NCBI GenBank assembly: GCA_041242255.1
Contig: JBESAV010000001.1
Coordinates: 603,449 to 667,448 of the forward strand
Length of the DNA: 64,000 nucleotides
Direction: 5' to 3'
Source of the DNA: Candidatus Altimarinota bacterium
Lineage (GTDB): Bacteria; Patescibacteriota; Gracilibacteria; UBA1369; GCA-2718715
Position 1 is the first letter of the stretch. Each line of letters starts with the position of its first letter. Positions 6,450 through 43,894 of this stretch are shown one piece after another. The position numbers and the translations under genes were made by a program. The notes under the pieces were generated by a model. It had not been told where the DNA came from. It saw only the letters and a program-made list of their open reading frames with translations, and searched no databases.

Positions 6450-7521
6450 ATCAAAACTACAAACCCTAGTCGATGAACTTAAAGAAATCGACCAAGAACT
6501 AATGAACCCTGATGTAGTCAGTGATCAAAATAAGTACAAAAATCTAATGGTCCGAAGGAGCGAGCTAGAACCAGTTGTTGAAGCTTTCCAAAAATACAAA
6601 GCATCATCCAAGAACCGCAAAGACGCCGAACAAATGCTGCAAAACGAATCTGACGCAGACATGAAAGAGTTTTATCAATCCGAAATCGAATCTTCAACTC
6701 AAAAAATAGAAAAACTAGAAGAAGAGCTCAAAAAAGCTCTAATTCCAAAAGATCCAAAAGATTACAAAAATTGTATCATCGAAGTAAGAGCCGGTGCAGG
6801 TGGAGACGAAGCCTCACTTTTTGCTGGTGAGCTAGCTAGAATGTACATGAGATATGGTGAACAAAATGGTTTCACCTCAGAGATCCTTAGTCAAAGTGAC
6901 AATGATACAGGAGGAGTAAAAGAAATGATCATTCAAATGTCTGGTCCAAAACCATATGGAACCTTTAAGTTTGAAAGTGGTGTCCACAGAGTTCAAAGAG
7001 TTCCAGTAACAGAGTCACAAGGTAGAATTCACACATCAGCTGCTTCTGTAGTAGTTTTACCTGAGGTTGATGACATAGATATCAACCTTGATCCAAACGA
7101 CTTACGTATCGACGTATTCCGCTCTAGTGGACCAGGTGGACAATCTGTTAATACTACTGACTCCGCAATTCGTATAACCCATGAGCCAACCGGTATAACT
7201 GTTTCTTGTCAGGATGAAAAATCCCAACATAAAAACAAAGACAAAGCCATGGCTATTCTTAAATCACGTCTTTTCGACCTTGAGGAGGCAAAGCGTATGA
7301 AAGAATTAGGTGCCGCTAGACAATCAAGTATTGGGTCAGGTGATAGGTCAGAAAAAATTAGAACCTACAACTTCCCACAAGATAGAGTAACTGATCATCG
7401 TATTAAGCAATCATGGAACAACCTTCCATCAATCCTAGATGGAAACCTCCAAGAGATAATCGAGGCAATCCAAGTTGAAGAACAAGCTAAGCTCCTTGCT
7501 GAAGCATCAAAGACTGAGTAA
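6439..7521 (+). CDS. prfA: peptide chain release factor 1
   Basis: 360 aa. GGQ motif (SSGPGGQSVNTTDSAIRITH) and the RF1-type tripeptide PVT in RVQRVPVTESQGRIHTS. Confidence 0.97.
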   Translation: MELESKLQTLVDELKEIDQELMNPDVVSDQNKYKNLMVRRSELEPVVEAFQKYKASSKNRKDAEQMLQNESDADMKEFYQSEIESSTQKIEKLEEELKKALIPKDPKDYKNCIIEVRAGAGGDEASLFAGELARMYMRYGEQNGFTSEILSQSDNDTGGVKEMIIQMSGPKPYGTFKFESGVHRVQRVPVTESQGRIHTSAASVVVLPEVDDIDINLDPNDLRIDVFRSSGPGGQSVNTTDSAIRITHEPTGITVSCQDEKSQHKNKDKAMAILKSRLFDLEEAKRMKELGAARQSSIGSGDRSEKIRTYNFPQDRVTDHRIKQSWNNLPSILDGNLQEIIEAIQVEEQAKLLAEASKTE

Positions 7522-7890
7522 CCAGTTCTTAAGTTCAGCATTTTCAATCTTTTTCTTAAAAACATGAGCCCCGCTCATTAGTTGTTTAAGCTTTTCTGGG
7601 TTGGCTGATGAAACAATACATCTTTTTGATATATCATTTTTTTCACATACTTTCATGACTTCATCACCATTCCTTATGGGCATATTAAAGTCAGAAATTA
7701 CAACCCACTCAGAAGGTTCAAAGCTCCCCAAAGCTTTAGCTTCCAAAAAACTACAAGCTTCGAAACCATTTATAAATTCATAAATTTTATTTTCTGGATA
7801 TTTATCTCTGATTAATTCACGGTGCATTCGAATCCAATCAATATCGTCATCCACCACAACAAACTTGATATCCAGGTTTATATCAACCAT
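7507..7890 (-). CDS. stand-alone response regulator receiver (CheY-like) domain protein
   Basis: Receiver fold motifs FVVVDDD and VISDFNMP. I prefer the internal ATG at 7890 (MVDINLDIKF...) because the ORF-track start at 7968 overlaps the tatD start. Confidence 0.75.
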   Translation of the reverse strand: MVDINLDIKFVVVDDDIDWIRMHRELIRDKYPENKIYEFINGFEACSFLEAKALGSFEPSEWVVISDFNMPIRNGDEVMKVCEKNDISKRCIVSSANPEKLKQLMSGAHVFKKKIENAELKNWLLSL

Positions 7891-7926
7891 ACTACAACTA
7901 ATTATTTTTCCTAATTTATCACAAAA

Positions 7927-8670
7927 ATGTCTAATTCTCCATCTGTCCCAGAGATTTTCAAGTTTCAAAAGTCACCAACTAAAAAATCAGATGTTTTTTT
8001 CGACTCACACGCTCACATCCAGTATCCAGAATTTAAAGATTTAGATCCATTTATACAAAGAGCTAAGCAAATTGGACTAAGAGGAGTTGTCTGTGTCGGA
8101 ATTGATCATAAAACATCTCAACAAGCCCTTGAGATTCATAAAGCTAACTCAGACTACATTTACCCAACTATCGGAAACCACCCATACAATGCCGATCAAG
8201 ACTTCCAACCAATCTACGATCAAGCCCATCAATACAAAGATTCCTTTATAGGAATAGGGGAAACTGGACTAGATTATTTCAAAAACAAACTTTCAAAAAG
8301 CGTCCAAAAAGAATCACTCTTAAATCACGCCAAACTAGCCAAAGAATTAGACCTTCCTATCATCCTTCATCTAAGAGAGCTAGATGATTGCTGGGCAGAT
8401 TGTTGGGATATTCTAAAAAAAGCGCAATACCCCAAAGCTATATTCCATTGTTTTACAGGTTCATTAGACCAAGCTAAAGAAATCTGGTCACATGGCTACA
8501 AAACATCCTTTTCTCTACTTATTACTTATCCAAAAAACCAAGTACTAAAAGAAATCTATCAAAACTGCCCGCCAGAACATCTACTTATTGAGACTGACTC
8601 TCCTTACCTCCCACCACAAGATCTAAGAGGTCAAACAAACGAACCCTCTTATCTCTCGAATCTATCCTAG
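7927..8670 (+). CDS. tatD: TatD family metal-dependent hydrolase/DNase
   Basis: 247 aa. FDSHAHI, GETGLDY, HLRE, FHCFTGS and ETDSPYL motifs. The C-terminus looks short after NEPSY. Confidence 0.85.
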   Translation: MSNSPSVPEIFKFQKSPTKKSDVFFDSHAHIQYPEFKDLDPFIQRAKQIGLRGVVCVGIDHKTSQQALEIHKANSDYIYPTIGNHPYNADQDFQPIYDQAHQYKDSFIGIGETGLDYFKNKLSKSVQKESLLNHAKLAKELDLPIILHLRELDDCWADCWDILKKAQYPKAIFHCFTGSLDQAKEIWSHGYKTSFSLLITYPKNQVLKEIYQNCPPEHLLIETDSPYLPPQDLRGQTNEPSYLSNLS

Positions 8671-10888
8671 AGTGGATACTTAAAACACACGCAAATGTCT
8701 CCAAATCAGTCCTATCCTGAACTGATAAATTAACATTGTATAGGGCGGTAGAGTTATGGATACTCAAAACTGTCTCTATATGCCCAGGCTCAAATTCACA
8801 TGAGGTTTCGATATACATATTCTTCATTTCATCTATTTCTTCAATCAGCCTTTTCCTTTCATTTAGAGCAGAGTTAAGAAGGATTTCCCTAATAATTGCA
8901 GTCTGGTACTGCTCTTCCATAAACTTATTAGAAAACTTTCGACATAGATTTTTCAATGCATCACATACACTTTGATCCTCTAACACAACTTCGCTATCTT
9001 CATTTACAATAGTTGCTACAATTGAGTTAAACCTCAGTATGTCAATCTCTGAAATCTCACCCTCAAAAGCATATTTCCAGCTTAAGTACTCAATAGCTTT
9101 TTTAATCTCAGCTTCTGCAGGAAGCAGTCCAAGTTTATTTCTGGTATTTTCACATTGTCTAGCTTTATATGAAGAGTGATCTTCTGGATAAAAAAGTATC
9201 ATCATAATTTCTAATGGTACTGTTTCACCATCAACATCAAGATCCACAATATATTTAAAAGTCCTAATATTCTTAGAAAATTTATTCAAATGTGGTTCAT
9301 CATTCAGCAAAGAAGTCTTAACTTTTCTAATCTTCACTAGTGAAGCCCCAAGTTTTTTTACCAAAACATGAGTCATTCCTAAACAAAACTGTTTCAACTG
9401 CGCGTTATCTTGAGCAATCTCAATCTCATATGGTATTCCAACTCTACACCTAAAGGTATCATCAACTCTATCGCTACCCCTCAAGATTTTCTCTACTGCT
9501 GAGTACTTGGTCTTAGGCTGACCAAATTCAAGTACCACTGGGTTCGTATGGCCATTATGCCTTATTTTAGACAGATATACTCTATTGTTATCATTAGTTT
9601 TTACTTCGATCATCTGAGTTTCCACATTAGAGCTTAGTCTCCTTTCTATCTCTGAATCTATTTCTCTAATCCTATCTTCAGATCCATAGTATTCAGGTAG
9701 CTGTGTTTGAGCCATCATATGACGTAAAATATAAGAACAAACTGAAACATTGTTCCAATCGCAAAAACTCTCAATGATTTTCTTAGATTCCAAAAACTCC
9801 CTTAGCTCAACTAAAAGTTCTCCATTCACAGCTCGAGCAATATCCAGCTTAAAGTTACCACTTAAGATAGTTATCTTCTTATCAAACTTATCAAACATAT
9901 TTGCGTAACCTTCTTCAAAGCTTAAAGTTTCATCTTCAAGGTATCTAAAGTTATTAGCTAACCCTAAAATTGCATCCGCCAACATATTTCGGTTCCTTTC
10001 ATTATCCTCCAGCATTGTTTCATGTAGCTCAGAATCATTCAAAAACTCAAACTTATTTGCCTTAGGCTTATCAAATAAAAGGTTGATAATAAACCTAGTC
10101 TCAGCTTGTGTAAGGGCTCTACCAATAAAATCATTAAAAATCTCAGAAGTCTGAAAGTGATCCAAAGTATCTTCCAATGAGTTCAACCAATCATTTAAGA
10201 TATAAGTGGCTTTAAACAAATCACCAAGCTCTTCATCAGCTCTAAGACCTAGCCTTTCACTTATTTGCTTATTTTTTTCAATTAAGTCCCTCCTTTCATT
10301 AGTGCTATATTCAAGTCCTAATCTAACACTATCAGTAAGCTCAACGAAAATCTCTACATACTTCCTAGTCTGCCCTCTATTCAGTTTGTCTAATGTATAG
10401 TTGTCTTGTTCAACAATGGCCGCAATAACTTTTTCAGCAATATCATCATCTGCTACAATTCCATACCTTTCATACAAGTTTTTTGCCCCAATCATATAAA
10501 ACTTTGAGTGGATCGGCTCTTCTAATTCTTGTTCCTCTCTAGTCTCGGTAATAATTTTCTCCTCAAGTTGCTTCATAGTAGCCATACTCAAAGGCCTATT
10601 AGAGCTAATATTTATGCTGTCATAAAGTTCTCTATACTTACTCATTGGAGCATTTAAGTATGGGTGAGCTAATCTATTTTCAGAATACAATTCTAATTTC
10701 TCCAGCTCATGGCATAACCTTTCATGATCCTCAAGTGAACTACTAGAGTCCAAAACTCTAAGCACAGATGGATTAATACCCATTTGACTTACGATATCAG
10801 AATAACTAGATTCATCATCTAAACTACTAAAATCATCATCTTCGATACTCATATTTCTAAGTAATCTGTCGATATCTTTCTCAGTCAT
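8585..10888 (-). CDS. large hypothetical protein with a possible RelA/SpoT-like nucleotidyltransferase core (residues ~455-578)
   Basis: 767-aa ORF with an acidic N-terminus. Motifs PKTKYSAVEKILRG, DDTFRCRVGI, FKYIVDLDV and PLEIMMILFYPEDHSSYK resemble Syn1-Syn4 of RSH synthetases. Recognised by eye only. Confidence 0.6.
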   Translation of the reverse strand: MTEKDIDRLLRNMSIEDDDFSSLDDESSYSDIVSQMGINPSVLRVLDSSSSLEDHERLCHELEKLELYSENRLAHPYLNAPMSKYRELYDSINISSNRPLSMATMKQLEEKIITETREEQELEEPIHSKFYMIGAKNLYERYGIVADDDIAEKVIAAIVEQDNYTLDKLNRGQTRKYVEIFVELTDSVRLGLEYSTNERRDLIEKNKQISERLGLRADEELGDLFKATYILNDWLNSLEDTLDHFQTSEIFNDFIGRALTQAETRFIINLLFDKPKANKFEFLNDSELHETMLEDNERNRNMLADAILGLANNFRYLEDETLSFEEGYANMFDKFDKKITILSGNFKLDIARAVNGELLVELREFLESKKIIESFCDWNNVSVCSYILRHMMAQTQLPEYYGSEDRIREIDSEIERRLSSNVETQMIEVKTNDNNRVYLSKIRHNGHTNPVVLEFGQPKTKYSAVEKILRGSDRVDDTFRCRVGIPYEIEIAQDNAQLKQFCLGMTHVLVKKLGASLVKIRKVKTSLLNDEPHLNKFSKNIRTFKYIVDLDVDGETVPLEIMMILFYPEDHSSYKARQCENTRNKLGLLPAEAEIKKAIEYLSWKYAFEGEISEIDILRFNSIVATIVNEDSEVVLEDQSVCDALKNLCRKFSNKFMEEQYQTAIIREILLNSALNERKRLIEEIDEMKNMYIETSCEFEPGHIETVLSIHNSTALYNVNLSVQDRTDLETFACVLSIHSRIDSRDKRVRLFDLLDLVVGGKESQSQ

Positions 10889-10999
10889 TCTTGAATTTTA
10901 ATATACAGCATCATAATAATCATTTCGCAATATGTCAAGTCTCATCAACATGTAAATTACTTCAAATTCTTGTTAAGATTAGATAAATAATTTCAAAAC

Positions 11000-12205
11000 A
11001 TGAACTACCACCAAATCCAACCAATAGGCGACAAAAAAAACTCAGAATTTTTCAACGAAACACTACACAAAATATACAAACATAGAGACAAAAGTGGACT
11101 CACTCAAAACATTCAAAAAATCCACAGTTTTCATATTCAAGTAGATCCTGGAACAGCAGAACAATACATAAGCGAGCTAATTCTGATGACTCCATTCCAG
11201 TACCAAAACTCATACCTTTTAGAAAATTACAAATTTCACGTATTAAAAGTTACAGACCAAAACCCTTTATATATCATTCGTGAACCACATAATTCAGACA
11301 TAGATCAAACCACAGAAAGCTATCACCTTAACAACTTATCTAAAGTTGGCAAAACAAAATCCCACACTCGTTACTTAGGTGAAGTTTATCAAGTACATGA
11401 TCTCCAAGAGCTTCAACAAAAACTTTTAGACCAAGAAGTATACTTTGAACCACAATATGATCACACAAACGTTCTTTGGACCGAAGCCTCCCCATTTACA
11501 TGGAACAAACTCGGTTATATCCAAGAAGGAGTAAGTATTTTTCCAGACAATGCAAAACCTTATGTGTTTGCAGAAAAAACCGTGAATCAATTTCATAAAT
11601 CCAAACAGCTTCAACACAAGTATCAAATAGACCAGTATGTATTACCAATCGACCACTTCGCAACCAGAGTCTACTCACACGATAGGGAACACGCCATCTT
11701 AGAATACCTAACTTTAACCAATTACTATTTCTGGGGAGCCTACAATATTGGAGACCAAAACTCCTCTACAAATATTTGCCGAAACACAAATTCACTCCCA
11801 GAATCAATCTCGCCAGCTAAAGTGTTCACAGCCAACAACACACCTTATTACATAAATCACATCACAAAACTCCCATCGCCAACCGAAAATTTCGTCAGAA
11901 ACTATGGCCGAAGACTTCATCACATAGCCTATGCAGTAAGAGATGGTTACATTGGAGATGAAAAAGATGACATAAAAAATGTTGATTTCGTTGTGACTCA
12001 ACTCCAAAAATGTGAAGCAGAATTCCTCCAACATGTAATCGGAAGCTGTGCAGAAGGTCTTAAGCAAATTTTCTCAAAACCATCAAAATATAGTTTGCTC
12101 ATAACTGAATACATTCAAAGATGTGATGATTTTCAAGGATTCTTTACCAAAGAAAACGTTGCTGCCCTTACCGAAGCAGCAGGCCACGACGACCTTATAA
12201 CTTAG
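11000..12205 (+). CDS. VOC-superfamily protein, 4-hydroxyphenylpyruvate dioxygenase-like
   Basis: 401 aa. The C-terminal pattern RRLHHIAYAV ... GLKQIFSK ... LITEYIQRCDDFQGFFTKENVAALTEAAG parallels the HPPD HIA / LLQIFT / FFEIIQR / GFGxGNFxALFE motifs. Confidence 0.55.
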   Translation: MNYHQIQPIGDKKNSEFFNETLHKIYKHRDKSGLTQNIQKIHSFHIQVDPGTAEQYISELILMTPFQYQNSYLLENYKFHVLKVTDQNPLYIIREPHNSDIDQTTESYHLNNLSKVGKTKSHTRYLGEVYQVHDLQELQQKLLDQEVYFEPQYDHTNVLWTEASPFTWNKLGYIQEGVSIFPDNAKPYVFAEKTVNQFHKSKQLQHKYQIDQYVLPIDHFATRVYSHDREHAILEYLTLTNYYFWGAYNIGDQNSSTNICRNTNSLPESISPAKVFTANNTPYYINHITKLPSPTENFVRNYGRRLHHIAYAVRDGYIGDEKDDIKNVDFVVTQLQKCEAEFLQHVIGSCAEGLKQIFSKPSKYSLLITEYIQRCDDFQGFFTKENVAALTEAAGHDDLIT

Positions 12206-13481
12206 TAGCAAGTTTAAAACCTAGCCTTTGCACTTCTAAAGATCTCTGATCAAAGTAGCTACACTTACGAGTCTCACCTGTCAAACTTACTTCACCTATA
12301 AAAACATTGTTTAGTTTCTGAGGTCTCTTCTTGTATGAGTTTATCAAGCTATTCATCACAGCAAGGTCTGCAGCAGTATCTTTTATCTTAAATCCGCCAG
12401 AGATATTCACAAACACGTCCTGCTGAGACAAATCAACTCCATAATACTTCTGAAGCACCGCAATTATCATCGACAGTCTATTCGTATCAAATCCAACTGA
12501 AGATCTCTTAGGATACCCAAAACTACTCGGAGCTGTCAAAGCCTGAACCTCAACTATAAAAGGTCTATTACCCTCCATTGTGCAAGTCAAACTAGACCCA
12601 ATCAATTCCTTGGATCTTTCTTCCAGAAACTCCTTCGCTGGATCCTCAACTTGTCTTAATCCATTCGATTCCATGTGAAACAACCCAACCTCTTCAGTAG
12701 AACCAAAACGATTTTTTACTGATTTCAAAAAACGATACCTAGCTACTCTATCTCCTTCAATATACAAAACTGTATCAACCAAATGCTCTAGAACCTTAGG
12801 TCCAGCAAGCTCACCATCCTTAGTCACATGGCCAATTATCAAAACCGGAACTCCTCTTGATTTAGCCCAGTTTAGTATAGCTTCTGTTACATGGCGTATA
12901 TTTGAAGTACTTCCTGCAAAACTATTCGAACTGGCAGTTTTAATAGTCTGAATCGAATCAATTACCAAAAAACCAACTCGTTCTGAGTTTTTTTCAATGT
13001 CTTCCAAACACATCAAAACCTCTTCCAAAATATTAGATTCAATAAACTGTAATCCATCCAGAGTACAGTCCATTCTATCAGCTCTTATCTTAATTTGCTC
13101 CATAGACTCTTCTCCAGCTACATACACCATGTTTGCAAGATTTAGTTTATCCAACACTTGCAGAGTTAAAGTCGATTTACCAATCCCTGGTTCACCCCCA
13201 AGTAACATCAAAGCTCCAGGCACAACACCTCCTCCTAGCACTCTATCAATCTCACGGATATTTGTAGGTATCCTTTTGTATGAAATCTCTCTTGCTTCAG
13301 CTAGAGTTCGAGGCGATATACCCCTTATGTTTGAGTTAGAAGCAATACCCCCACTAGTCTTTTTAACCTTTTCTCTTTCCTCTAGGGTATGCCATTCTTT
13401 ACACTCAGAGCATTGCCCAGACCATTTCAAATGTGTTGCTTGACAACTAACACATACAAATTCCGTTTTAACTTTAGCCAT
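12195..13481 (-). CDS. radA: DNA repair protein RadA/Sms
   Basis: 428 aa. N-terminal CxxC...CxxC zinc finger, Walker A GGEPGIGKST, the KNRFG motif and a Lon-like C-terminal part. Confidence 0.95.
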   Translation of the reverse strand: MAKVKTEFVCVSCQATHLKWSGQCSECKEWHTLEEREKVKKTSGGIASNSNIRGISPRTLAEAREISYKRIPTNIREIDRVLGGGVVPGALMLLGGEPGIGKSTLTLQVLDKLNLANMVYVAGEESMEQIKIRADRMDCTLDGLQFIESNILEEVLMCLEDIEKNSERVGFLVIDSIQTIKTASSNSFAGSTSNIRHVTEAILNWAKSRGVPVLIIGHVTKDGELAGPKVLEHLVDTVLYIEGDRVARYRFLKSVKNRFGSTEEVGLFHMESNGLRQVEDPAKEFLEERSKELIGSSLTCTMEGNRPFIVEVQALTAPSSFGYPKRSSVGFDTNRLSMIIAVLQKYYGVDLSQQDVFVNISGGFKIKDTAADLAVMNSLINSYKKRPQKLNNVFIGEVSLTGETRKCSYFDQRSLEVQRLGFKLATKL

Positions 13482-19316: not shown

Positions 19317-19460
19317 TCATATAATTTATTTATCATATAATTATACAATAAATAGCTGATTAAATAAACACTAACATGCATCGATTAGTATAAATCTATA
19401 GATAAGATTTCGCATCTGTAACCGAAGCATATATAATCAAGCAAAATCTAACACAATACT

Positions 19461-22094
19461 ATGAAATTAAAGTCTTATTTAAGTTTAATCATAGCAGTAC
19501 TGGCTATGACTACTTCCTTGGCTTTAGCAGCCATCTCAGCAAACTATCCATTTGATGTTGCCGTAAACTACGTTATATCCAATGATGACCTTATTGTGGT
19601 TTCTGGTGGTACAGCTGACTCGCAGATCGTTGATGAGTATCAGGTAAATGATACTACTGCCAGTTTTCAAACCCCACAATCTGCTACCCTCTTAACTGAT
19701 GGTAATAATTTTGTAACTTATACGAGCGGTGGAGATATATATGCAAAAGTGATAAATCAAGATGGTGAAACAATTGTTGCAGAAACCATAGTTAACTCAG
19801 TAACAAATGCCACCCAGTTCGAAGCAAACTCATCCCTGATTACCACAGATAGCGGAGACGACATTGTTCTAGTTACTTGGACATCTTTTGATACCGCAAC
19901 TGATACTTCTTTCGCTGGTGATACCCAGGATACTACTTTAAATCACATTGCTGCTAGAGGTTTTAGGTATGATGGAACATCACTAGCCGAAGAAATAGCT
20001 GAGTTTCAAGTTAATGAAAACGTTGACTCACTACAAAATGAGTCAAGCTCTACATCTTATAATGACGGAGCAAATGATAAAATTCTAATCACATGGCACA
20101 GTGCTGATGACGCTCTAGAAGCAAATAATGGAAGTACAAATATCGCCGCTCGTACTTTTGATATCGATGGAACAAATCCCGGAACAGAATTTTTAGTAAA
20201 TTCAATTTCAATCAATGACGAATACTATCCAGAAGTTCAAACTTTAGACAATGGAGATGTAGCTTTTACGTACCAAACTAGTATTAACATTGCCATAAAA
20301 ATCCTAGACAACGGAGACTTAAATGGAGCACCAGCACTAGCACAAACTATAGTAAATACGACAGCAACAGCCACAGATGCATACCCACAATTCGAACAAA
20401 CATATGATGGCAATCTATTCATCACTTGGATTATGGAAGATGATGGTGACATTGATGGTATAGCTAGAAGTGTATATCAAACAGATGGAACACAAGTAGC
20501 AGCAGAAGCTGTAGTTAATACACAAACTGACAGTGTTCAGGAGGCTCATTCAACTGCACTATTAAATGATCCTAGTAATCCTGGTCAAGATATAGTGTTT
20601 ATTGCTTACTACACTGAGTCTTCAACTTACAATGGAGGAACAGATTCCGAAATAGTCGGTAAAGTATATAACCCAGATGGGTCAGCCTCTTCAGGTGAAG
20701 TCTTAATAAACCAAAACCTAACTAATTTCCAATACAGCCCAGTAGTTTCTCCAACCAATGATGGAGTAGTCCTAGTATTATGGGAGTCAGAGGATGTTGC
20801 CGCAGTCGTTGATGGTGATGGCTCTTATGTTGCAGCGATACCTCTAGGCGATGAAGTAAATAACGTATATCCAACTACCAACCCTTACATTCAACCAGTA
20901 ACAGCATATTCATACTCAGAACCATTAAGAGCCTTCATCGAAACTGAACTAGCCCTTGAAAATAGCGGTACAAATTATCAAATCTCAGATGATGCTGGTA
21001 CGACTTGGTACTACTATGACGGATTTAACTGGGTGACAACTGAAGAGTTAGACTCAGAGTTTAACTCAGCTTCAACAGTAACTACAAACATCTCAGACTT
21101 TACATCCAATGGTACATTCTTATGGAGAGCCTATATAAACTCAGATGATGCAGTAAGATTCGGTAATGCTGCTACTTCATTAGACAATATTGAAATTCAA
21201 GAAAATGAAGCTCCAGTTATCACTTCCGAAGCAGGTCAAGACACTGTAAACAAAACTTTAAATCCTGGAGATACAGAAGTATCAACTCTTGAATACACCA
21301 CTGACTCACTTGCTAGTATGGTGTCCGAAGATCTATCTGGTGCAGATGCAGCACTATTCCAGTTAGCAAGTGGTGGTCTGCTAAACCCTGATCCAGTACT
21401 TTCTTTCTTATCAGCAAGTCCAGCTGCAGATGCCAATGCTGATGGAACTTATGAAGTTACGATCACTGTTACAGATGATGTAGGTTCAACAGACACCCAA
21501 AGCTTTTTGATATCTTTCGCATCAAGCGGAGGTAGTTCATCTGGAGGTGGGTCAGCTTCATCAAATGTTGACACTTCAAGCCCATTCGCAAACCAGACAT
21601 CAACACCAAGTAATCCATCTTCGCCACAAGAACAAGCCGATGTTTGTGATAAAGAAGAAATGCTTAAAGACATCAATAAATTCAAAGACTTCGACAAAGA
21701 AATATCTAGATATGAAGCTGTTAAATACGTACTTCTAATTAACTGTATTGGTCTAGACGAGTTGCCAGCAGACGGAAGCTATCCTTTCTCAGATATCAAT
21801 ACATCTGAAGAAAACTTAGCTAGAGTCCTTTACACTGCCTTCAACCGCGGAATAATCTACGGATACCCAGATGGAGAATTCAAGCCAAACAGAACTATCA
21901 ATTACGTTGAACTTCTAGCTATTAACTCAAGAGCTCAAGGTCTTGCCGATGACAATTCAGTAGGGGAGAACTGGTTCCAAAGTTACCTCTCACTAAGAAT
22001 AACAATCGAGCTAGCAATTAGTGGGGTAGGTTACGAAGACCCAATCCTAGGTAGAAACTTCTATGTAATTACTAAATCTTTCTTAGAAAGTTAA
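19461..22094 (+). CDS. large secreted surface protein: repeat (propeller-like) region, cadherin-like domain, Gly/Ser linker, C-terminal SLH-type module
   Basis: 877 aa with a signal peptide. Contains about 60-70-aa repeats each ending xDGxxxxxExxVN. A cadherin-like segment is APVITSEAG...TYEVTITVTDDVGSTD. The C-terminus carries the SLH motif GYPDGEFKPNRTINYVEL. Confidence 0.8.
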   Translation: MKLKSYLSLIIAVLAMTTSLALAAISANYPFDVAVNYVISNDDLIVVSGGTADSQIVDEYQVNDTTASFQTPQSATLLTDGNNFVTYTSGGDIYAKVINQDGETIVAETIVNSVTNATQFEANSSLITTDSGDDIVLVTWTSFDTATDTSFAGDTQDTTLNHIAARGFRYDGTSLAEEIAEFQVNENVDSLQNESSSTSYNDGANDKILITWHSADDALEANNGSTNIAARTFDIDGTNPGTEFLVNSISINDEYYPEVQTLDNGDVAFTYQTSINIAIKILDNGDLNGAPALAQTIVNTTATATDAYPQFEQTYDGNLFITWIMEDDGDIDGIARSVYQTDGTQVAAEAVVNTQTDSVQEAHSTALLNDPSNPGQDIVFIAYYTESSTYNGGTDSEIVGKVYNPDGSASSGEVLINQNLTNFQYSPVVSPTNDGVVLVLWESEDVAAVVDGDGSYVAAIPLGDEVNNVYPTTNPYIQPVTAYSYSEPLRAFIETELALENSGTNYQISDDAGTTWYYYDGFNWVTTEELDSEFNSASTVTTNISDFTSNGTFLWRAYINSDDAVRFGNAATSLDNIEIQENEAPVITSEAGQDTVNKTLNPGDTEVSTLEYTTDSLASMVSEDLSGADAALFQLASGGLLNPDPVLSFLSASPAADANADGTYEVTITVTDDVGSTDTQSFLISFASSGGSSSGGGSASSNVDTSSPFANQTSTPSNPSSPQEQADVCDKEEMLKDINKFKDFDKEISRYEAVKYVLLINCIGLDELPADGSYPFSDINTSEENLARVLYTAFNRGIIYGYPDGEFKPNRTINYVELLAINSRAQGLADDNSVGENWFQSYLSLRITIELAISGVGYEDPILGRNFYVITKSFLES

Positions 22095-22111: not shown

Positions 22112-22150
22112 CAAAAAAGCTTATCTTCACAAAAAAGGTAAGCTTTTTTA
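22112..22150. terminator. hairpin flanked by A-run and T-run between convergent genes (bidirectional terminator)
   Basis: aaaaaAGCTTAtcttcacaaaaaaggTAAGCTTtttt. Confidence 0.55.
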
Positions 22151-22618
22151 GGTACCTATTACAAAACCAGTTTTATCATGATCTCGAGCATAGTCATTCA
22201 GGATCTTATAAAGTTTCCATACTGAGTCCAAGTTTTTGATAACTATAGACGTATTAATTGTCGGCGCACTAATCTTAAGATCTCCATATTTCAAGTATCT
22301 TCCAACTATACTTTGGCTAACTTCAATTTCCTGAATGTATTCCATCGAAAAACTTTTTTTCTGTTGAAACAAGAACCCTTTATTTATCTCAAGAATATTA
22401 TCTTTTACCTTAACAACATTGAAATGCCATAAAATACAAAGCCAACTCATCCCAATAGCCATAGTTCCTAAAAAGAAAAAGATCCCTGTCAAATCAGTCC
22501 CTGCATTTAGGAGGTAGGAAACTATTCCCAAAACTACAGCAAGTTTCATAAAATCTCCCAAAAGACTAAACACACTTTTCCTAAACTTCAACGACGTTCT
22601 TATCTTAACTTCAGTCAC
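22148..22618 (-). CDS. membrane protein with bacterial PH (YdbS/YdbT-like) domain
   Basis: 156 aa. Two TM helices are followed by a short beta-rich domain (FSMEYIQEIEVSQSIVGRYLKYGDLKI) typical of bPH_2. Confidence 0.55.
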   Translation of the reverse strand: MTEVKIRTSLKFRKSVFSLLGDFMKLAVVLGIVSYLLNAGTDLTGIFFFLGTMAIGMSWLCILWHFNVVKVKDNILEINKGFLFQQKKSFSMEYIQEIEVSQSIVGRYLKYGDLKISAPTINTSIVIKNLDSVWKLYKILNDYARDHDKTGFVIGT

Positions 22619-22669: not shown

Positions 22670-23215
22670 TCATCTATATAGATCCAAATAGTTAGCCACC
22701 AGCCTTCTATTCGTATTCCAGCTATACGTAAAGTCAGAAGTAGTCTCTAAGGAATTAAAATCCTCTAGATCCATTCTCTCATCAATCTGTGCGATAGAAA
22801 CATTAAAATCACGTTCTTTTTTTCCTTGTAGTTCCAAATAGAAATCGTATTTTTTACCATCAATAAATCTAGACAGCTCTCCAGTTTTAAACTCTTCCAA
22901 GTCTCCAGCATGATAACAAATACTCAACTGACCCATGCTCACAACTCTAATTCCGTTAACAGTCGTATACTTTAGTCTTAACCTAATCGACATACCAAGT
23001 GCCGTAAAAATAACATAAGAAAGAGCCAACTTATTAAAGCACATAACAAATATCAAACCAGTTATCAAAGTACTATCAATCATTATTATTTCAGATTCTT
23101 TTACAATTTCTTCATTTTGTCTTCTTTTTTCAGCTTTTTCACGATTAGCATTTTTACGTATCTCTAGCTGATCTTGATCTGGCTCATGACTTAAAAGCTT
23201 CCTTTCTACAACCAT
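22670..23215 (-). CDS. hypothetical membrane protein
   Basis: 181 aa with a charged N-terminus and one or two TM segments. Its first 8 codons and its promoter lie inside the 75-bp direct repeat. Confidence 0.55.
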   Translation of the reverse strand: MVVERKLLSHEPDQDQLEIRKNANREKAEKRRQNEEIVKESEIIMIDSTLITGLIFVMCFNKLALSYVIFTALGMSIRLRLKYTTVNGIRVVSMGQLSICYHAGDLEEFKTGELSRFIDGKKYDFYLELQGKKERDFNVSIAQIDERMDLEDFNSLETTSDFTYSWNTNRRLVANYLDLYR

Positions 23216-23267
23216 ATAATTCTTATTAACTCACTAAATTTACAAAACAAATCCCTTTTTGGCAAGC
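23193..23267. repeat. 75-bp direct repeat, copy 1 (identical to 25046-25120)
   Basis: aaaagcttcctttctacaaccatataattcttattaactcactaaatttacaaaacaaatccctttttggcaagc is found twice with no mismatch. Confidence 0.95.
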
Positions 23268-23273
23268 AAGCCG

Positions 23274-23302
23274 TTGACAAAAGTAGAATCTGTAAGTAGT
23301 AT
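23274..23302 (+). promoter_or_regulatory. candidate promoter of the ABC-F cassette
   Basis: TTGACA, 17 nt spacer, TAGTAT, starting 7 nt after repeat copy 1. Confidence 0.5.
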
Positions 23303-23532
23303 TTGAACATATAAACACAAACATGACAAACGTCCTAGAATTATATATATCAAAAACAACCAACCAAGCGTATTTAGCATGGAAGTCTAGGTCGTGTAGT
23401 CTTTGTCGAACTGTTGCTCATTTACAAGTGTAAATGAGGGTAATAAAACAAAGGTTTTATCATCTCTTTCACGCTTGTTAAACATTTACACCGTACTATA
23501 GGTGTTTTTATTTATATGAGTAACTAAACAAG
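23303..23532 (+). promoter_or_regulatory. long 5' leader with 36-codon uORF (23323-23433) and alternative hairpins ending in a hairpin plus T-run (attenuator-like)
   Basis: Stem 23417-25/23430-38 (9 bp). Alternative stem 23428-36/23483-91 (9 bp). Terminator-like stem 23488-92/23501-05 followed by TTTTT. Confidence 0.45.
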
Positions 23533-24975
23533 ATGTTAATTATCAAAAATTTAAACCTTAAAGTCCTAGACAACCACAAGGAAACCTTAATCAAAGAGGT
23601 GAATTTATCCTTAGATTCTAGTTCAAAGTCTAAGGTAGCCCTCATCGGAGAAAATGGCTCAGGAAAATCAACTCTCTTAAAAGCAATTTATAATAATCTA
23701 AACAGTTGTATAAATATTCAAAATGAAAAGATATTATACTTAGAACAAACAAAAAAATTTCCAGAAAATCAACTTTTTGGCGAGATTCTTGAACAGCACA
23801 TTGATATTAATTCAGAATATTACAAAATTGATATAATTTTAGACGAATTTTCTCTTCAAGAAGATATAGTACTGAAGCCCGTGAAACATCTAAGTGGAGG
23901 AGAGCTTCTTAAACTACAGCTTGCTGAGCTAATGATTCAAGACCCTACTATACTTTTATTAGACGAACCTACAAATCATTTAGATCAAGATGCAAAAATA
24001 TTTTTATCAAATTTTATTAAAAATTTTACAGGTTCAATTCTACTAGTAACTCACGATAGGGAATTTATTCAAAACACAACAAATCAAATTTGGGATATTG
24101 ACCCTGTGACTAAGACTCTTCATAAGTTTACAGGCACTTTTAAAGATTGGCGTATTCAAAAAGCAAACAAAATACAAAAATCTAATCATATGCATAATAG
24201 TATTCAATCTGAGATTCAAAGCATTCAGAGTTGGTTAACTGCAAATCAATCACATCCAAAGTACAGATTTAGCGCCATTGTAAAAACAAAAAAACAAAAA
24301 ATTGAAAAGCTTAAGGCAAAATTAGATGATATTCAAAAATATAAAGATAAAAAAATAACTCTTACAAAAAATTCAAATCTAACTTATAAACAAAACCTAC
24401 TTATCTCATACGAGTTCATAGAGCATCCTTTGTACGGTAATTTAAAAGGTAAAATTTACAACCAAGACCAAATTTTACTTACAGGTAAAAATGGTTCCGG
24501 GAAATCAACACTTTTAAAGTATTTATCAAATCCAGTTAATATCCAATCAGTTTATCCAATTAAAAATCCTAAAACTAGAGTTAACATATTTCATAATAAA
24601 GAATTAAAAATATTTACTTTGAGTCAGTCTTCAAAGCTTCCACAAAGTAAAACTGTATATGAAATATTAGTAAGCAATAACAAGTTTAATCACACAAAGG
24701 TTTTCCAATCTATGGCAGATTTACGCCTAAAACATTTATTAAAGCATAAATTATCTGATCTTAGTGGAGGAGAACAAAAAAGAGTTGAGTTAGCAATTTT
24801 AAGTGCTCATCAACCTGACATGATTTTACTGGATGAACCAACAAATCATTTGGATATCTATACGCAGGAACAAATTCAAAATTTCCTTAAAGACACACAA
24901 GTAACTTTTATTATAGCTTCTCACGACAATTTCTTGATAGACAATCTGAATTTCAAAAAATACATTCAATTGTAA
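23533..24975 (+). CDS. ABC-F family ATPase (two tandem ABC domains, no transmembrane domain)
   Basis: 480 aa. Walker A GENGSGKST and GKNGSGKST. Signatures LSGGELLK and LSGGEQKR. Walker B LLLDEPTNHLD occurs twice. A basic helical inter-domain linker is present. Confidence 0.9.
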   Translation: MLIIKNLNLKVLDNHKETLIKEVNLSLDSSSKSKVALIGENGSGKSTLLKAIYNNLNSCINIQNEKILYLEQTKKFPENQLFGEILEQHIDINSEYYKIDIILDEFSLQEDIVLKPVKHLSGGELLKLQLAELMIQDPTILLLDEPTNHLDQDAKIFLSNFIKNFTGSILLVTHDREFIQNTTNQIWDIDPVTKTLHKFTGTFKDWRIQKANKIQKSNHMHNSIQSEIQSIQSWLTANQSHPKYRFSAIVKTKKQKIEKLKAKLDDIQKYKDKKITLTKNSNLTYKQNLLISYEFIEHPLYGNLKGKIYNQDQILLTGKNGSGKSTLLKYLSNPVNIQSVYPIKNPKTRVNIFHNKELKIFTLSQSSKLPQSKTVYEILVSNNKFNHTKVFQSMADLRLKHLLKHKLSDLSGGEQKRVELAILSAHQPDMILLDEPTNHLDIYTQEQIQNFLKDTQVTFIIASHDNFLIDNLNFKKYIQL

Positions 24976-24988
24976 GAATTATTAATAC

Positions 24989-25017
24989 AAAAGATCGCCT
25001 TTTGGGTGATCTTTTTG
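24989..25017 (+). terminator. intrinsic terminator after the ABC-F gene
   Basis: aaAGATCGCCttttGGGTGATCTtttt. Confidence 0.6.
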
Positions 25018-25038
25018 TAATGATTCATGTAGACCTAT

Positions 25039-25068
25039 TTAACTCAAAAGCTTCCTTTCTACAACCAT
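25039..25068 (-). pseudogene. duplicated 5' fragment (MVVERKLLS*) of the 22670-23215 gene inside repeat copy 2
   Basis: The ATG and first 8 codons are identical to the intact gene, followed by a stop. The same upstream TTGCCA-17-TAAATT promoter-like sequence is retained. Confidence 0.6.
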
Positions 25069-25120
25069 ATAATTCTTATTAACTCACTAAATTTACAAAA
25101 CAAATCCCTTTTTGGCAAGC
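25046..25120. repeat. 75-bp direct repeat, copy 2
   Basis: Identical to 23193-23267. Confidence 0.95.
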
Positions 25121-25233
25121 TGACCCATCTAAACCAAGAAAACAATCCCATACTTAGCCAAACTATATTCATCAAAAAAACTTGTTTGGACAAATATTTA
25201 CAAATATTGTTGATACGAATTTAAGACAATTCA

Positions 25234-25638
25234 ATGTCCATACTAAAATTTGAAAACGCAACTAAATATCCATCTAAATATCCAGAGATTGAAGCTGTAA
25301 GTTTGGGAGAACCTATTTTCTCATCTCGCTCAGAAGAAATACAAGCAAAACTCTTAGGTGTCCTTATAAAAGACCTTAAGGCATTATACCCTGACAAAAA
25401 TCCTGAACCGACCAATATAAATACTCAAGATCCAGAAAGTGACTCTACAGTTTTTTATGGTATAAAATCTGAAACAAATAATGATTCAAATTACGAGACA
25501 ACAATAAGCTTTGACCATAAAGAAGACCCTCACAACCCAGGGCAGCAAATCTACCGCACTTTAACAGCAACATTCAAGTCTAACCAAATTACCTCTCTAG
25601 GAGTATCTTGGTCCTGGGAGCCAAACCTAAAAGCCTAA
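25234..25638 (+). CDS. hypothetical protein
   Basis: 134-aa ORF followed directly by a strong terminator hairpin. Confidence 0.5.
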   Translation: MSILKFENATKYPSKYPEIEAVSLGEPIFSSRSEEIQAKLLGVLIKDLKALYPDKNPEPTNINTQDPESDSTVFYGIKSETNNDSNYETTISFDHKEDPHNPGQQIYRTLTATFKSNQITSLGVSWSWEPNLKA

Positions 25639-29900: not shown

Positions 29901-30374
29901 AATTTCTTACCAGATGAATGTAATTACGAAAGAGCCTTAAAAGAAATAGAAAAGTTCGACGGATTTGATCAAGAAATCTCAAGGTACGAAGCTCTTCAAT
30001 ATGTTCTTATCATTAACTGTATTGGACTTGATGAACTTCCACAAAACCCAGCTGACTATCCTTTCTCAGATATCAATCTAGAAAGCGAAAAACTAGCTAG
30101 AGTTTTATATACAGGATACAACAGAGGAATAGTAAAAGGATATCCAGACGGAACATTCCGCCCAGCAGATCCAATTAACTACGTTGAGCTTCTCGCTATC
30201 AATGCTAGAGCTCAAGGCCTAGCTACTGACTCTCAGGAGGACGGTACAGAGTGGTATAGCTCATACTTAACTCTTGGTCTAACTATCCGTCTAGCCATCT
30301 CAGGAATAGATTATGCAGACCCAATCACAGGTGACACTTTCTACCTAATCACTACAACCTTCCTAAACAGCTAA
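26940..30374 (+). CDS. giant secreted surface protein: CSLREA-type N-terminal domain, many parallel beta-helix repeats, Gly/Ser/Pro linker, C-terminal SLH-type module
   Basis: 1144 aa with a signal peptide. N-terminal GDGVCTLREAINNSN. More than 15 repeats of NxISGNxxxGI / IQGNYIG. The C-terminus is homologous to that of 19461-22094 (GYPDGTFRPADPINYVEL). Confidence 0.85.
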   Translation: MFYTKQIKKGLMLFLFLGVLSLTSIASAATITVNTDADNTTAGDGVCTLREAINNSNGDVDTTSSDCTPGAGADTIVFDLPGATRITVATELPAITDTVDIVGQSQGASSCLDKNTLEMELTTSQQGISGLIFDSGSNGSSLSGFYIHNFTAASFSGFGAVELNTEVQVSCNVFGIDATGSVSENMYGIIVEGANSVIGGPNPEDGNVISGSAIDGVRISGASTTNVTVSNNYIGTNIAGSSEIPNQSQGVRTVLSSQAEIGPNNVISGNNSSGIRITSPNVNVFGNIVGLNAAGDAAIPNSTGIFSTAGDLIIGGGTEADRNIISGNDASGIFIDTSDSNIQIQGNYIGVSQDGSASISNGGDGVNIEAIAPILIGGDTLGQGNVISGNSGNGIHTQNNSNGAEIKGNIIGLNAAGDTAVPNLFDGILGRANNLVIGGDTIAERNIISGNGSDGIESSFFYSGHTIQGNYIGVSQDGSSDIGNGSTGITATDSQIGGLNPGEGNIISGNGDVGLDISSGTIQGNLVGLNASGTSAIPNDTGGISAFGTAVEENIISGNTGVGLELGGDNATIFGNYIGTSSDGTFAVPNTSHGVVLSGDSIQVGSTVSGEENIISGNGGSGIVLDGTNIDIIGNLIGVSITEDATGNEESGIQVIQQSEQVFDGDGFVTEFSPSNNITIGGLTSDHSNTISANSIAGILVDDSNTNISILGNNIGTDSLGNVVPGDLVNDALGNGQFASAGEDFGGIIARSSSSVSIGNADGSGANVIAGNTGPGILVSQNLTLAESTVTILSNSIFSNSGLGIDLANDSDGDGFSELEQDATLNDAGDVDTGANSLQNFIELTAKTDNGANYTVDYTLDTISGDYLVQFYESSQADPSNYGEGETLLTSESITHTGGGSESFTATFSVTEPTTLVATVTQDLGGGSYGATSEFSSNEIIVEEPAPAPSGGGSNGSGVDASNTNPFGGEDQGSSEPDQETQPDVADNFLPDECNYERALKEIEKFDGFDQEISRYEALQYVLIINCIGLDELPQNPADYPFSDINLESEKLARVLYTGYNRGIVKGYPDGTFRPADPINYVELLAINARAQGLATDSQEDGTEWYSSYLTLGLTIRLAISGIDYADPITGDTFYLITTTFLNS

Positions 30375-38688: not shown

Positions 38689-38806
38689 TATAGGAGATGC
38701 CACACTCTAGTAATAGAAGTGTCAGGTATGATTGAACGGTAGACTTCATGTCTACGAGACATTCAAGTAATTATTTCTCTGTTGTGCACTGATTGTTAAA
38801 ACATTA

Positions 38807-38832
38807 AAACTACCCTAATAGGTAGTTTTTTT
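38807..38832 (+). terminator. intrinsic terminator downstream of 16S
   Basis: AAACTACCctaataGGTAGTTTttttt, directly after the 16S leader/trailer processing-stem partner (38768-38795). Confidence 0.7.
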
Positions 38833-38872
38833 TGTGTTTTATGTTATAATTATAAGATTTAAATAAATCTTC

Positions 38873-39703
38873 ATGGTTATGATGCCATCATATAGTGATT
38901 TCGAAAGCAATGAAGGAGCTAACCTAAGTCTAGATAACCAAAGTCTTGAGCCAGGAACAGAACTTCTAGATCAAGCAGATATTAATTTTCTGATGGAAGA
39001 GATAGTATCAGTATTAGACGATCCAAAGATAAATAGCCAAGCAATATTCTTAAACAACACCCCTCAAACAAAAGGTGAACTATATGAGTACACTGAAACT
39101 ATATATGGTATTGCTCAGCAAGCATTAATAAATGATTCTGACCTACTAGGAAACGCTCAGCTTTTTAGTCTTTTAGATAAATGTACTCAGATGCTTAAGC
39201 AAAATCTACCAGAATCAGAGCACAAAAACTATCAGACTGCACTTGTTGAATCTTATATGATAGGACTCCAGGCGGGATTATTTCTAGAGGAATCTACAGA
39301 TACAAACCAGACTGAAGAATCACTAGATTTTCAAGATCATTTTTTCTCTCCTGAAGAAGTAGTTAGGGCTATGCAAATGTATGAAAGTTTTGGTCTAAAA
39401 AGAGATGGTGCAATCATCGATAGTATTAATGAGATTAATGTAATTGGGGCTAATGAGTTAAGAACACTAGGCGAAACAATTTATAAATCGTATTCCACTG
39501 CACTAGAAAGAGGTTACCGTCCAACTCCGCTAGACTACGAACTACTATCCGGGATATCAAAAAACCTCAATATACTATCGAGGTCTAATAATTATAACTA
39601 TGCTAATGATATTCTAATTCAAGCTGAGCTTGGTGGAATAGCAGAGCAGACTAGTAAAGCTACAGCTAAGGTACTAAACCAAGATGCTAACTCTTCTTCC
39701 TAA
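38873..39703 (+). CDS. hypothetical protein encoded between 16S and 23S
   Basis: 276-aa ORF with no recognisable domain. Confidence 0.5.
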   Translation: MVMMPSYSDFESNEGANLSLDNQSLEPGTELLDQADINFLMEEIVSVLDDPKINSQAIFLNNTPQTKGELYEYTETIYGIAQQALINDSDLLGNAQLFSLLDKCTQMLKQNLPESEHKNYQTALVESYMIGLQAGLFLEESTDTNQTEESLDFQDHFFSPEEVVRAMQMYESFGLKRDGAIIDSINEINVIGANELRTLGETIYKSYSTALERGYRPTPLDYELLSGISKNLNILSRSNNYNYANDILIQAELGGIAEQTSKATAKVLNQDANSSS

Positions 39704-40088
39704 AGATTTCATTATAAAAATCAACTGAATTAGCTTTGAAGATAAGTCTCCAAGTAAAGAAAACTAAGACAAAAGTTATAAGAATAAATGCTTTTTTGAT
39801 AGGTAAAAATATAGCTAGTATAGGATAACTATATCCACAGAAAGCACAGAAGATAAACACCCCTATTAAACTCATATAAGCCTCAGATACCTCATCTTTT
39901 TCTGCTTTATCTTTATTATACCTTTTATAGGCTTGGTAATTTCTCCGAGCAAACTCAAAGTATCCAAGTATTACAGTAGTATTTGCTAAAACCATCAAGC
40001 CAACCCAAAACCAGTCATTTTGCATACAATCAATAAGAGTCATATACATGCCTTCAGGCCCAGTCATCATCCATTCAATAATACCCAT
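39687..40088 (-). CDS. hypothetical membrane protein
   Basis: 133 aa with three or four predicted TM helices. Confidence 0.5.
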   Translation of the reverse strand: MGIIEWMMTGPEGMYMTLIDCMQNDWFWVGLMVLANTTVILGYFEFARRNYQAYKRYNKDKAEKDEVSEAYMSLIGVFIFCAFCGYSYPILAIFLPIKKAFILITFVLVFFTWRLIFKANSVDFYNEIFRKKS

Positions 40089-40201
40089 TAATAAATATTA
40101 AATTATTCCTAAAATTTATAACTCAAAAACTCTAATCCACAAAGGATTTAAAGCCTCAATAAAGTCAATAGCCTATACAAAAAACACCACTATTTTATAA
40201 G

Positions 40202-40279
40202 TGGTGGGCGATGGAAGACTTGAACTTCCGACCTCTACATTATCAGTGTAGCGCTCTAACCAGGCTGAGCTAATCGCCC
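40202..40279 (-). tRNA. trnI: tRNA-Ile(GAU)
   Basis: GGGCGATTAGCTCAGCCTGGTTAGAGC... with anticodon loop CTGATAA and encoded CCA. Confidence 0.92.
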
Positions 40280-40304
40280 ATGCTTAATCATCAGAATATA
40301 AAAG

Positions 40305-40381
40305 TGGTGGAGCATAACGGAGTCGAACCGTTGACCTCCTGCGTGCAAAGCAGGCGCTCTAGCCAGCTGAGCTAATGCCCC
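40305..40381 (-). tRNA. trnA: tRNA-Ala(UGC)
   Basis: GGGGCATTAGCTCAGCTGG... with the G3:U70 pair, anticodon loop TTTGCAC and encoded CCA. Confidence 0.92.
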
Positions 40382-40498
40382 ACAAATCGGTCTTTAATGA
40401 TCAAAGCACGGTCATCTTACCAATAATCTTTTAAACTGCAAGTAAATTTTCATAAAAATTACATATATAATGAACCTATAATATTTCACATAACAGTA

Positions 40499-40732
40499 AT
40501 GAGAATTTTACTATCTATATTAGGTATCATATCTGGTCTTTTAATAATTAAATATAGAGAACCTATATATAGATTCACTGGAAAGTTTGGTTTTGCAGAG
40601 AAATATTTTGGGAGCGGAGGCACTCTTTCCTTCTATCTAATATTCGGATCTTTTTTAGTCATTTTATCTATAGTTTATGGCTCAGGATTTCTAGAAAATA
40701 TAATCAGTAAGCTCTTTTCTAGGTTTTTCTAA
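40499..40732 (+). CDS. small hypothetical membrane protein
   Basis: 77 aa with two hydrophobic helices. Its stop abuts rRNA promoter copy 2. Confidence 0.4.
   Translation: MRILLSILGIISGLLIIKYREPIYRFTGKFGFAEKYFGSGGTLSFYLIFGSFLVILSIVYGSGFLENIISKLFSRFF

Positions 40733-40917: not shown

Positions 40918-43894
<2,977 letters not shown>

Follow-up and report, generated by a model that had tools for sequence, protein, structure and literature searches.

A perfect 75-bp direct repeat around an ABC-F gene with a conserved leader: a likely rearrangement scar at the site of a lost exporter

The 64,000-nucleotide (nt) stretch of contig JBESAV010000001.1 from a Candidatus Altimarinota bacterium that was analyzed here (hereafter, the window) carries a gene for an ATPase of the ABC-F family, which is enclosed, together with its promoter and leader, between two copies of a perfect direct repeat of 75 base pairs (bp). 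The 75-mer at positions 23193-23267 recurs at 25046-25120 with 75/75 identity and a start-to-start spacing of 1853 nt, and the match reaches 79 nt when extended leftwards by four bases (to 23189 and 25042; ACT[T/C]) at the cost of one T/C mismatch, with ACT common to the left sides of both copies. By chance, ~1e-34 such pairs would be expected in 64 kb, and the window contains no third copy. The 1778-nt interval between the copies holds a promoter (TTGACA-17-TAGTAT, 23274-23302, plus strand), a leader of ~223 nt, the ABC-F gene and a terminator, and the ABC-F is the only protein encoded in the bracketed unit, which includes no recombinase. This is the complete module that a sequence-only reading of the same DNA had described and, as that reading had also noted, there is no integrase or transposase: Pfam detected no such domain in the genes checked within ~10 kb on each side.

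The two copies of the repeat differ in status. Copy 1 (23193-23267) comprises the native promoter, the 5' untranslated region (UTR) and the first ~8 codons of a minus-strand gene for a 181-amino-acid (aa) protein (gene X, 22670-23215) and is contiguous with the intact open reading frame (ORF) of that gene. The repeat therefore includes the minus-strand ATG of X, and a promoter scan recovered the element TTGCCA-17-TAAATT in both copies. Copy 2 (25046-25120) is an ectopic, dead fragment that retains the minus-strand promoter-like site and a mini-ORF, MVVERKLLS* (25068-25039), and these features, too, agree with the earlier description. However, the proposal that the promoter of copy 2 points antisense into the ABC-F gene holds only in part: the promoter-like site is present, but free read-through is not expected because a stable hairpin at 24989-25017 has U-runs on both strands. 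This bidirectional intrinsic terminator was not flagged by a simple terminator scan and was found as a stable hairpin accompanied by a U-run. It is located inside a 70-nt segment (24976-25045) that adjoins copy 2 on the left, whereas the right neighbor of copy 2 is an ancestral intergenic spacer, as shown below.

The arrangement is found, in whole or in part, in three further assemblies. A contig of an independent metagenome-assembled genome (L001), with 6 single-nucleotide polymorphisms (SNPs) over 12 kb, spans both copies of the repeat and crosses copy 2 into the downstream gene F; another contig (L003) runs from X through copy 1 into the ABC-F gene; and a Logan contig (L002) corresponds exactly to 23238-25075, which covers the unique interior and extends 30 nt into the repeat on either side, the outcome that a k=31 graph should give. 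The copies available were all sampled from a single near-clonal population. The repeat is not an assembly artefact.

The ABC-F gene (23533-24975, plus strand) encodes a 480-aa protein with two ABC_tran domains (PF00005) and no membrane domain. The best NCBIfam model for this protein is the ribosomal-protection-like NF000355, matched over the full length with 286 bits against a cut-off of 380, and the models of specific antibiotic resistance (ARE) subfamilies score it far below their cut-offs. The top matches among solved structures, Uup, YheS, VmlR/ExpZ and PoxtA, are all ABC-F proteins. With a GC content of 28.6%, compared to the window mean of 36.8%, this is the most A/T-rich gene in the window, but its GC content at third codon positions (GC3), 22.5%, is within the range of 20-39% of the other window genes, excepting one ORF of 49% that overlaps the 23S rRNA gene. 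Hence, the impression that the module is more A/T-rich than its flanks is borne out for overall composition, whereas GC3 is host-like. An exact protein look-up found the identical ABC-F only in its present context; its relatives are graded, at 64, 54, 52 and 49% identity, on contigs of 0.77-1.03 Mb, and homologues are syntenic down to 49% identity, with only those at ~40% located elsewhere.

The leader is highly organized. The -35 element TTGACA of the ABC-F promoter is invariant in the four lineages aligned (the window, L004, L006 and L009) and reads TTGACG in L022 and L026. The leader contains an ORF (23323-23433, plus strand; MTNVLELYISKTTNQAYLAWKSRSCSLCRTVAHLQV*) that is exactly 36 codons long in all seven lineages compared (the window, L004, L025, L006, L009, L022 and L026) and is conserved in its C-terminal half (W..R.CSL[CS][HR]T[VA]AHLQx-stop), with synonymous and last-codon changes. 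A CXXCH heme motif in the leader peptide was considered and rejected because it is not conserved (CSLCR in the window, CSLSH in L004). The end of the ORF overlaps a switch region (23417-23477, plus strand) in which a 9-bp hairpin, H1 (23417-25/23430-38), with the stop codon of the leader ORF in its 3' arm, is mutually exclusive with an alternative helix formed by CAAGTG (23425-30) and CGCTTG (23472-77); a small hairpin, H2, is located at 23443-60. Both H1 and the alternative helix are 100% paired in the 7 sequences, compared to 38-59% for slid-partner controls. In the alternative helix, the last two leader codons, CAARYG, can pair with YRYTTG ~45 nt downstream, and two of the positions covary (AU/GC/GU and CG/UA/UG), which is why the last amino acid of the peptide varies (V/A/M/T). 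The switch region is followed by an attenuator terminator (23488-23512, plus strand), with a stem that covaries across lineages and a U-run, ~20 nt before the ABC-F ATG. The covariation was read from 7 sequences, and the alternative helix would presumably oppose the terminator. The leader matches no Rfam family even at E<=10, and a search of the repeat region together with the leader gave only two sub-threshold chance matches.

Distant ABC-F homologues (40% identity; L028 5677-6000 and L029 5744-6000), found in unrelated contexts, are also preceded by leaders, of ~260-320 nt, with ORFs of 30-34 codons. The leader ORFs of these two loci have in common the pattern ..R[IL]AFT[GA].. as well as a DNA core, TTGCATTTAC, similar to TTGCTCATTTAC in the window.

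The leader has the predicted architecture of the ribosome-mediated attenuation known for ARE ABC-F genes, a group that includes vmlR, vga(A) and lmo0919. The msrD gene, an ARE ABC-F gene attenuated through the leader peptide MsrDL (PMC10314930), offers a close comparison. As in that system, the window encodes a single chain with two ABC domains and no membrane domain, for which the best model is ribosomal-protection-like, and the leader combines a short ORF overlapping a hairpin, alternative helices and an intrinsic terminator directly before the gene. Several features set the window apart from the known systems: the leader ORF, with its 36 codons, is long and does not vary in length, and its conserved C-terminal half resembles no known leader; the protein falls below the NCBIfam cut-off; the operon of the relatives additionally includes an MsbA-like exporter; the host belongs to an uncultured small-genome lineage; and an antibiotic role here would be a prediction from sequence. 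The ABC-F unit would work like the leader-attenuated ARE-type systems, probably belongs to them as a divergent member, and most likely responds to ribosome stalling; we infer that the leader and the ABC-F respond to antibiotics.

Comparison with related loci places the ABC-F gene among long-standing neighbors. An ABC-F orthologue (49-64% identity) with its leader is found at the same locus in six related lineages with ~1-Mb genomes (L004, L025, L006, L009, L022 and L026). In five of these (L004, L025, L006, L009 and L022), the gene order is LGT, a gene of ~80 aa, a gene of ~1210 aa (gene A), a bPH_2-domain gene, a gene of ~875 aa of the SLH family (gene C), ABC-F (D), an exporter (E), F and msrAB (G). 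The exporter is an MsbA-like permease-ATPase of ~595 aa with a start that overlaps the ABC-F stop, so that the leader of the relatives would control a translationally coupled protection-plus-export operon; its coordinates are 11440-13230 in L004, 11403-13184 in L006, 11409-13190 in L009, 11504-13303 in L022 and 6757-8547 in L025. In the window, the order is A, C, bPH-X, ABC-F, repeat copy 2, F and msrAB. Direct BLASTP showed that every window gene of the region, including X, has an orthologue in the loci of the relatives, and the ABC-F identity of 49-64% falls within the range of its neighbors, 26-81%. In L026, the SLH gene is followed by ABC-F, F and msrAB, with a 3' remnant of the exporter; L026 and L027 have lost the exporter independently, through a simple internal deletion that left this recognizable remnant. 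Among the MsrAB homologues, those with a taxon name (52-57% identity) belong to Candidatus Liptonbacteria and Uhrbacteria, and the ABC-F locus probably belongs to a clade of small-genome bacteria within Patescibacteria, or the candidate phyla radiation (CPR). An MsrAB scan of genome contigs recovered only distant taxa (e.g., Alcanivorax and Planctomycetota) and no close relative, the source species included.

The SLH-family surface protein gene C (19461-22094, plus strand; 877 aa in the window) is located directly upstream of the ABC-F promoter in the relatives. In the window, this place is taken by X and its partner, the bPH_2-domain gene (22148-22618, minus strand): the bPH-X pair sits between the SLH gene and ABC-F here but between gene A (1204 aa in the window) and the SLH gene in the relatives. 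X has no Pfam or NCBIfam match, and a large word-index protein search returned nothing but X itself; only direct BLASTP revealed its weak homology to genes of 133 and 154 aa beside bPH in L006 and L009 (31-35% identity, E=4e-14 and 4e-11), where an X homologue thus accompanies bPH_2. Gene F (25234-25638, plus strand; 134 aa) shows weak homology to the small gene that the relatives have between the exporter and msrAB.

The junctions show which parts of the window are displaced. On the left, the relatives have the terminator of gene C directly upstream of the -35 element of ABC-F, whereas an alignment of the upstream regions shows ...GGCAAGC AAGCCG in the window, with the boundary between bPH-X and ABC-F at ~23273|23274, abutting the -35 element. 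Copy 1 is homologous to the X upstream region in L006 and L009, with an equally spaced -35 element, TTGCCA, and the L006 sequence reads ...TTTTGGCAAGC-TC-AAGCCG-AAAAACC. The AAGCCG match to L006 indicates that copy 1 continues into ancestral X-upstream sequence six bases past the repeat. Given its attachment to the intact X gene and the agreement of its right flank, AAGCCG, with GGCAAGC-TC-AAGCCG upstream of X in L006, copy 1 is evidently the original.

On the right, 25134-25233 is the ancestral spacer between the exporter and F, and marks the right edge of an exporter deletion. Window positions 25134-25228 align over their full length to the exporter-to-F spacers of L025 and L004 with scores of 42 and 34 (shuffle mean ~17.6; 0/300 shuffles reached 42 or 34), and the same positions align to none of the X-to-C spacers. 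The L004/L025 lineage also has the closest ABC-F (64%) and a leader 3' end identical to that of the window over ~24 nt. The L004/L025-like ancestry shared by the ABC-F, the leader 3' end and the right spacer implies that these were once contiguous through exporter E. In the window, the exporter (~1.8 kb) is replaced by ~160 nt, consisting of the terminator segment 24976-25045, which occupies the place of the exporter start that overlaps the ABC-F stop in the relatives, the X fragment of 75-79 nt, and ~13 nt that possibly represent the very end of the exporter. Nucleotide-level breakpoints could not be placed against L021 and L022 because the intergenic DNA is too diverged.

Taken together, these observations lead us to favor, with moderate confidence, the interpretation that the ABC-F is a long-resident gene under attenuator control and that the repeat is the scar of a local rearrangement at the place where the exporter was deleted. 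The presence of the ABC-F gene and its leader at the same locus in six lineages, along with the ancestral right flank, argues that the bracketed gene was not inserted. In the course of events that we propose, the bPH-X pair would have come to sit directly upstream of the ABC-F promoter, and the exporter ORF would have been deleted almost exactly, with ~160 nt of filler left in its place. The filler would consist of the bidirectional terminator and a 75-79-nt copy of the X promoter and first codons, taken from a source 1.85 kb upstream. Copy 2 could be templated filler at an illegitimate deletion junction or, alternatively, the stub of a tandem duplication that was deleted along with the exporter. 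We also considered single-step models (one tandem duplication, an inversion or a circle), but under all of these, at least two or three events are needed to arrive at the order A, C, bPH-X, ABC-F, stub, F.

The best-documented cases of filler or templated DNA at the junctions of illegitimate deletions come from eukaryotic end-joining. The bacterial analogues, template switching and microhomology-mediated events, are poorly characterized in mechanism. The window resembles such cases in that a gene-sized deletion is patched with a short copy of nearby sequence, with a possible 3-nt microhomology at one junction, and differs from them in that the patch is compound, including both the terminator segment and the 75-mer.

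Several observations weigh against the interpretation of the repeat as a deletion scar next to a resident gene. The ABC-F tree is incongruent with those of the flanking genes: the ABC-F genes of L006 (10001-11410) and L009 (10001-11416) share 50% identity, compared to 83-92% between these two lineages for MsrAB, gene C and bPH. The ABC-F GC content is 8 points below the window mean, whereas in the relatives the gap ranges from none to ~4 points. The 70-nt segment 24976-25045 has no match in the fetched loci, in the window or, by tblastn, among exporter proteins. The right ends of the two X-derived pieces are only 6 nt apart (...GGCAAGC and ...GGCAAGCAAGCCG), which is unexplained if the two arose in independent events. 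One locus among the closest by MsrAB (80%), L021, lacks bPH, X, ABC-F and the exporter. Finally, there is no intermediate genome, for example, one in which bPH-X has moved and the exporter is kept, among the loci found, and the order and number of the events are guesses.

The first of these objections bears on the history of the ABC-F gene itself. MsrAB groups the window with L026, L021 and L022, bPH groups it with L006 and L009, and ABC-F with L004 and L025. Two deep classes of ABC-F alleles, one comprising L004, L025, the window and L009, and the other L006, L022 and L026, all occupy the same locus behind the same leader. Gene C is mosaic as well: the window is 72% identical to L025 but 58% to L004, while L004 and L025 are 84-93% identical elsewhere. 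The sequence-only reading had proposed to place the ABC-F against the phylogeny of host markers, and the gene indeed has a history of its own, but the incongruence indicates replacement of alleles at the same site, or else very uneven rates, rather than insertion of a cassette. Apparently, the ABC-F gene moves between lineages by such replacement.

Among the alternatives, a remnant of tandem duplication or amplification stands closest to the favored account, although we regard it as distinctly less probable. Under this scenario, the 1853-bp unit was duplicated, antibiotic selection being one possible cause, and both the second ABC-F and the exporter were later lost in a deletion that spared only the initial 75-79 nt of the second unit. 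The structure indeed amounts to a full unit followed by the initial 75 nt of another; the ACT left of both copies fits a microhomology junction; and the exporter, having been independently lost in L026, is dispensable. It is well established that recombination can amplify weak resistance genes in tandem (PMC12892994), and the window shares with such heteroresistance units a resistance-type gene between repeats long enough for RecA-dependent unequal crossing-over, in a layout that resembles one unit and the stub of a second. However, the repeats here are only 75 bp and are not copies of insertion sequences (IS) or rRNA genes, and the host is an environmental CPR-like bacterium. Furthermore, this scenario requires two events and a terminator segment that already existed downstream of ABC-F, and the T/C mismatch directly follows the proposed microhomology. 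It predicts past or present variation in copy number.

The suggestion that copy 2 was kept because it is useful, as the source of a short, terminated antisense transcript or mini-ORF, or as a plus-strand promoter (TCAAAA-18-TATAAT) that serves gene F after the break of the operon, appears unlikely to us. The 75 nt are preserved without a mismatch while orthologous intergenic DNA of related lineages is too diverged to align, the plus-strand promoter-like site inside the repeat is the best-scoring one of the scan, and the predicted minus-strand transcript folds stably (z=-3.4) and ends at the bidirectional terminator. Yet promoter-like sites are no more common than in shuffled sequences (17 vs 17.1 expected), the perfect identity may reflect a recent event given the near-clonal sampling, and the ancestral spacer upstream of F is intact and may carry its own promoter.

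Slightly less probable still is the insertion or capture with a 75-bp target duplication that the sequence-only reading had favored, in which a circular or linear DNA carrying the ABC-F gene and the 75 bp integrated at the X promoter, by a Campbell-type crossover or by capture, in a genome without ABC-F at that place. Perfect direct repeats around a self-contained unit are what such an event would leave; the ABC-F GC content is the lowest among the window genes; the ABC-F phylogeny is at odds with that of the flanking genes; and L021 demonstrates that genomes without ABC-F at this locus exist. Against this origin stand the occupancy of the same locus in six lineages and a degree of divergence like that of the flanking genes, the ancestry that the spacer right of copy 2 shares with the ABC-F and leader, which places them in contiguity before the exporter was lost, the restriction of the identical protein to the present context, the host-like GC3 and the lack of a recombinase among the genes checked. 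L021 also lacks X and bPH and hence does not qualify as an empty site of the repeat; its locus (4219-12352) has the order 1212-aa gene (A), SLH gene, F, msrAB, and the adjacency of A and C is common to the window and L021. The empty site with a single repeat copy, which the earlier reading had proposed to look for, did not appear in exact-identity look-ups for ABC-F and X, which gave only the filled arrangement. A metagenome scan with a 43-nt core of the repeat likewise found neither a circle nor an empty site; this is a weak negative, as is that of a scan with the degenerate leader motif, which found nothing although the JGI relative L006 should match, so that the collection evidently lacks these samples.

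With islands flanked by attachment (att) sites and integrated circles, such as those of the Campbell type or the IS26-type translocatable units, the window has in common a self-contained unit between perfect direct repeats, of which one makes the target gene complete at its 5' end and the other is a duplicate cut short. It differs in having no recombinase or IS, in that the bracketed gene is ancestral at the locus and no empty site is known, and in that the repeat is the promoter of a neighboring gene instead of a tRNA gene or an att core. In short, the ABC-F unit fails three tests for a mobile island: recombinase, empty site and foreign context.

A related idea, which we consider quite improbable, sees the 1853-bp unit, made up of ABC-F and one repeat, as a translocatable or amplifiable module, free of IS and recombinase, that RecA-mediated recombination between the 75-bp repeats would release as a circle or amplify and that would spread ABC-F alleles by reintegrating at the X promoter in sibling cells, with the 36-codon leader ORF as a new ribosome-arrest sensor in CPR bacteria; if true, this would explain the incongruent ABC-F tree. 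The notion that the repeat is an artefact of assembly, through a collapsed or chimeric path or the mis-joining of a free circle and an empty chromosome, can be practically dismissed: the k=31 graph of L002 does break exactly at the repeat, and short-k graphs cannot separate an integrated unit from a circle, but typical reads are longer than the repeat, two independent assemblies (L001 and L003) pass copy 1 from X into ABC-F, and L001, which its SNPs identify as a different dataset, passes copy 2 as well.

Beyond the repeat, several features of the locus deserve mention. The C-terminal ~150 aa of the 877-aa SLH protein and of a second one, of 1144 aa, are paralogous (window 21650-22094 and 29919-30374), and the gene upstream of ABC-F in L026 (2-1876) resembles the 1144-aa window protein (60% over 628 aa), not the 877-aa one. 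Around the ABC-F locus, genes for surface proteins undergo shuffling. Past msrAB and uppS, the relatives carry a variable island (L022 1662-8395; L004 16074-21443; L009 15716-21416) with restriction-modification, Abi/HEPN and Fic genes, a serine recombinase and a phage CRI-type replication gene, in the place where the window has the 1144-aa SLH gene. A 28-nt A/T-rich element directly upstream of the start of the 1204-aa gene (window 19326-19353) is also found in L004 (6362-6389), L025 (1619-1641) and L021 (8684-8705); the L004 copy matches at 28/28 positions despite an identity of only ~28% between the proteins of the 1204-aa gene, and the element is probably a conserved promoter or 5' UTR signal. 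Farther away, the 16S and 23S rRNA genes of the window are separated by 2.2 kb (38689-40931) that hold a 276-aa ORF without a Pfam match (38873-39703, plus strand) and two tRNA genes on the opposite strand (40205-40381).

As a consequence of the proposed rearrangement, the ABC-F gene would now be monocistronic and insulated. From the anatomy of the unit we agree that recombination between the repeats would excise it precisely, and, with 75 bp of perfect homology on either side, the ABC-F gene could be lost or amplified through RecA. More generally, perfect direct repeats around a complete resistance-type gene can mimic an insertion and yet mark the scar of a deletion or rearrangement. The locus is a hotspot of changes in gene order, recurrent loss of the exporter and exchange of ABC-F alleles between lineages. 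Whereas the scar itself is ordinary, the leader ORF is a new example of its kind: in a clade of uncultured bacteria with small genomes, an ABC-F gene, usually accompanied by an exporter, is maintained behind a conserved leader, in which the 36-codon ORF and the RNA switch, without an Rfam family, are a candidate regulator through which CPR bacteria could sense antibiotics or stalling.

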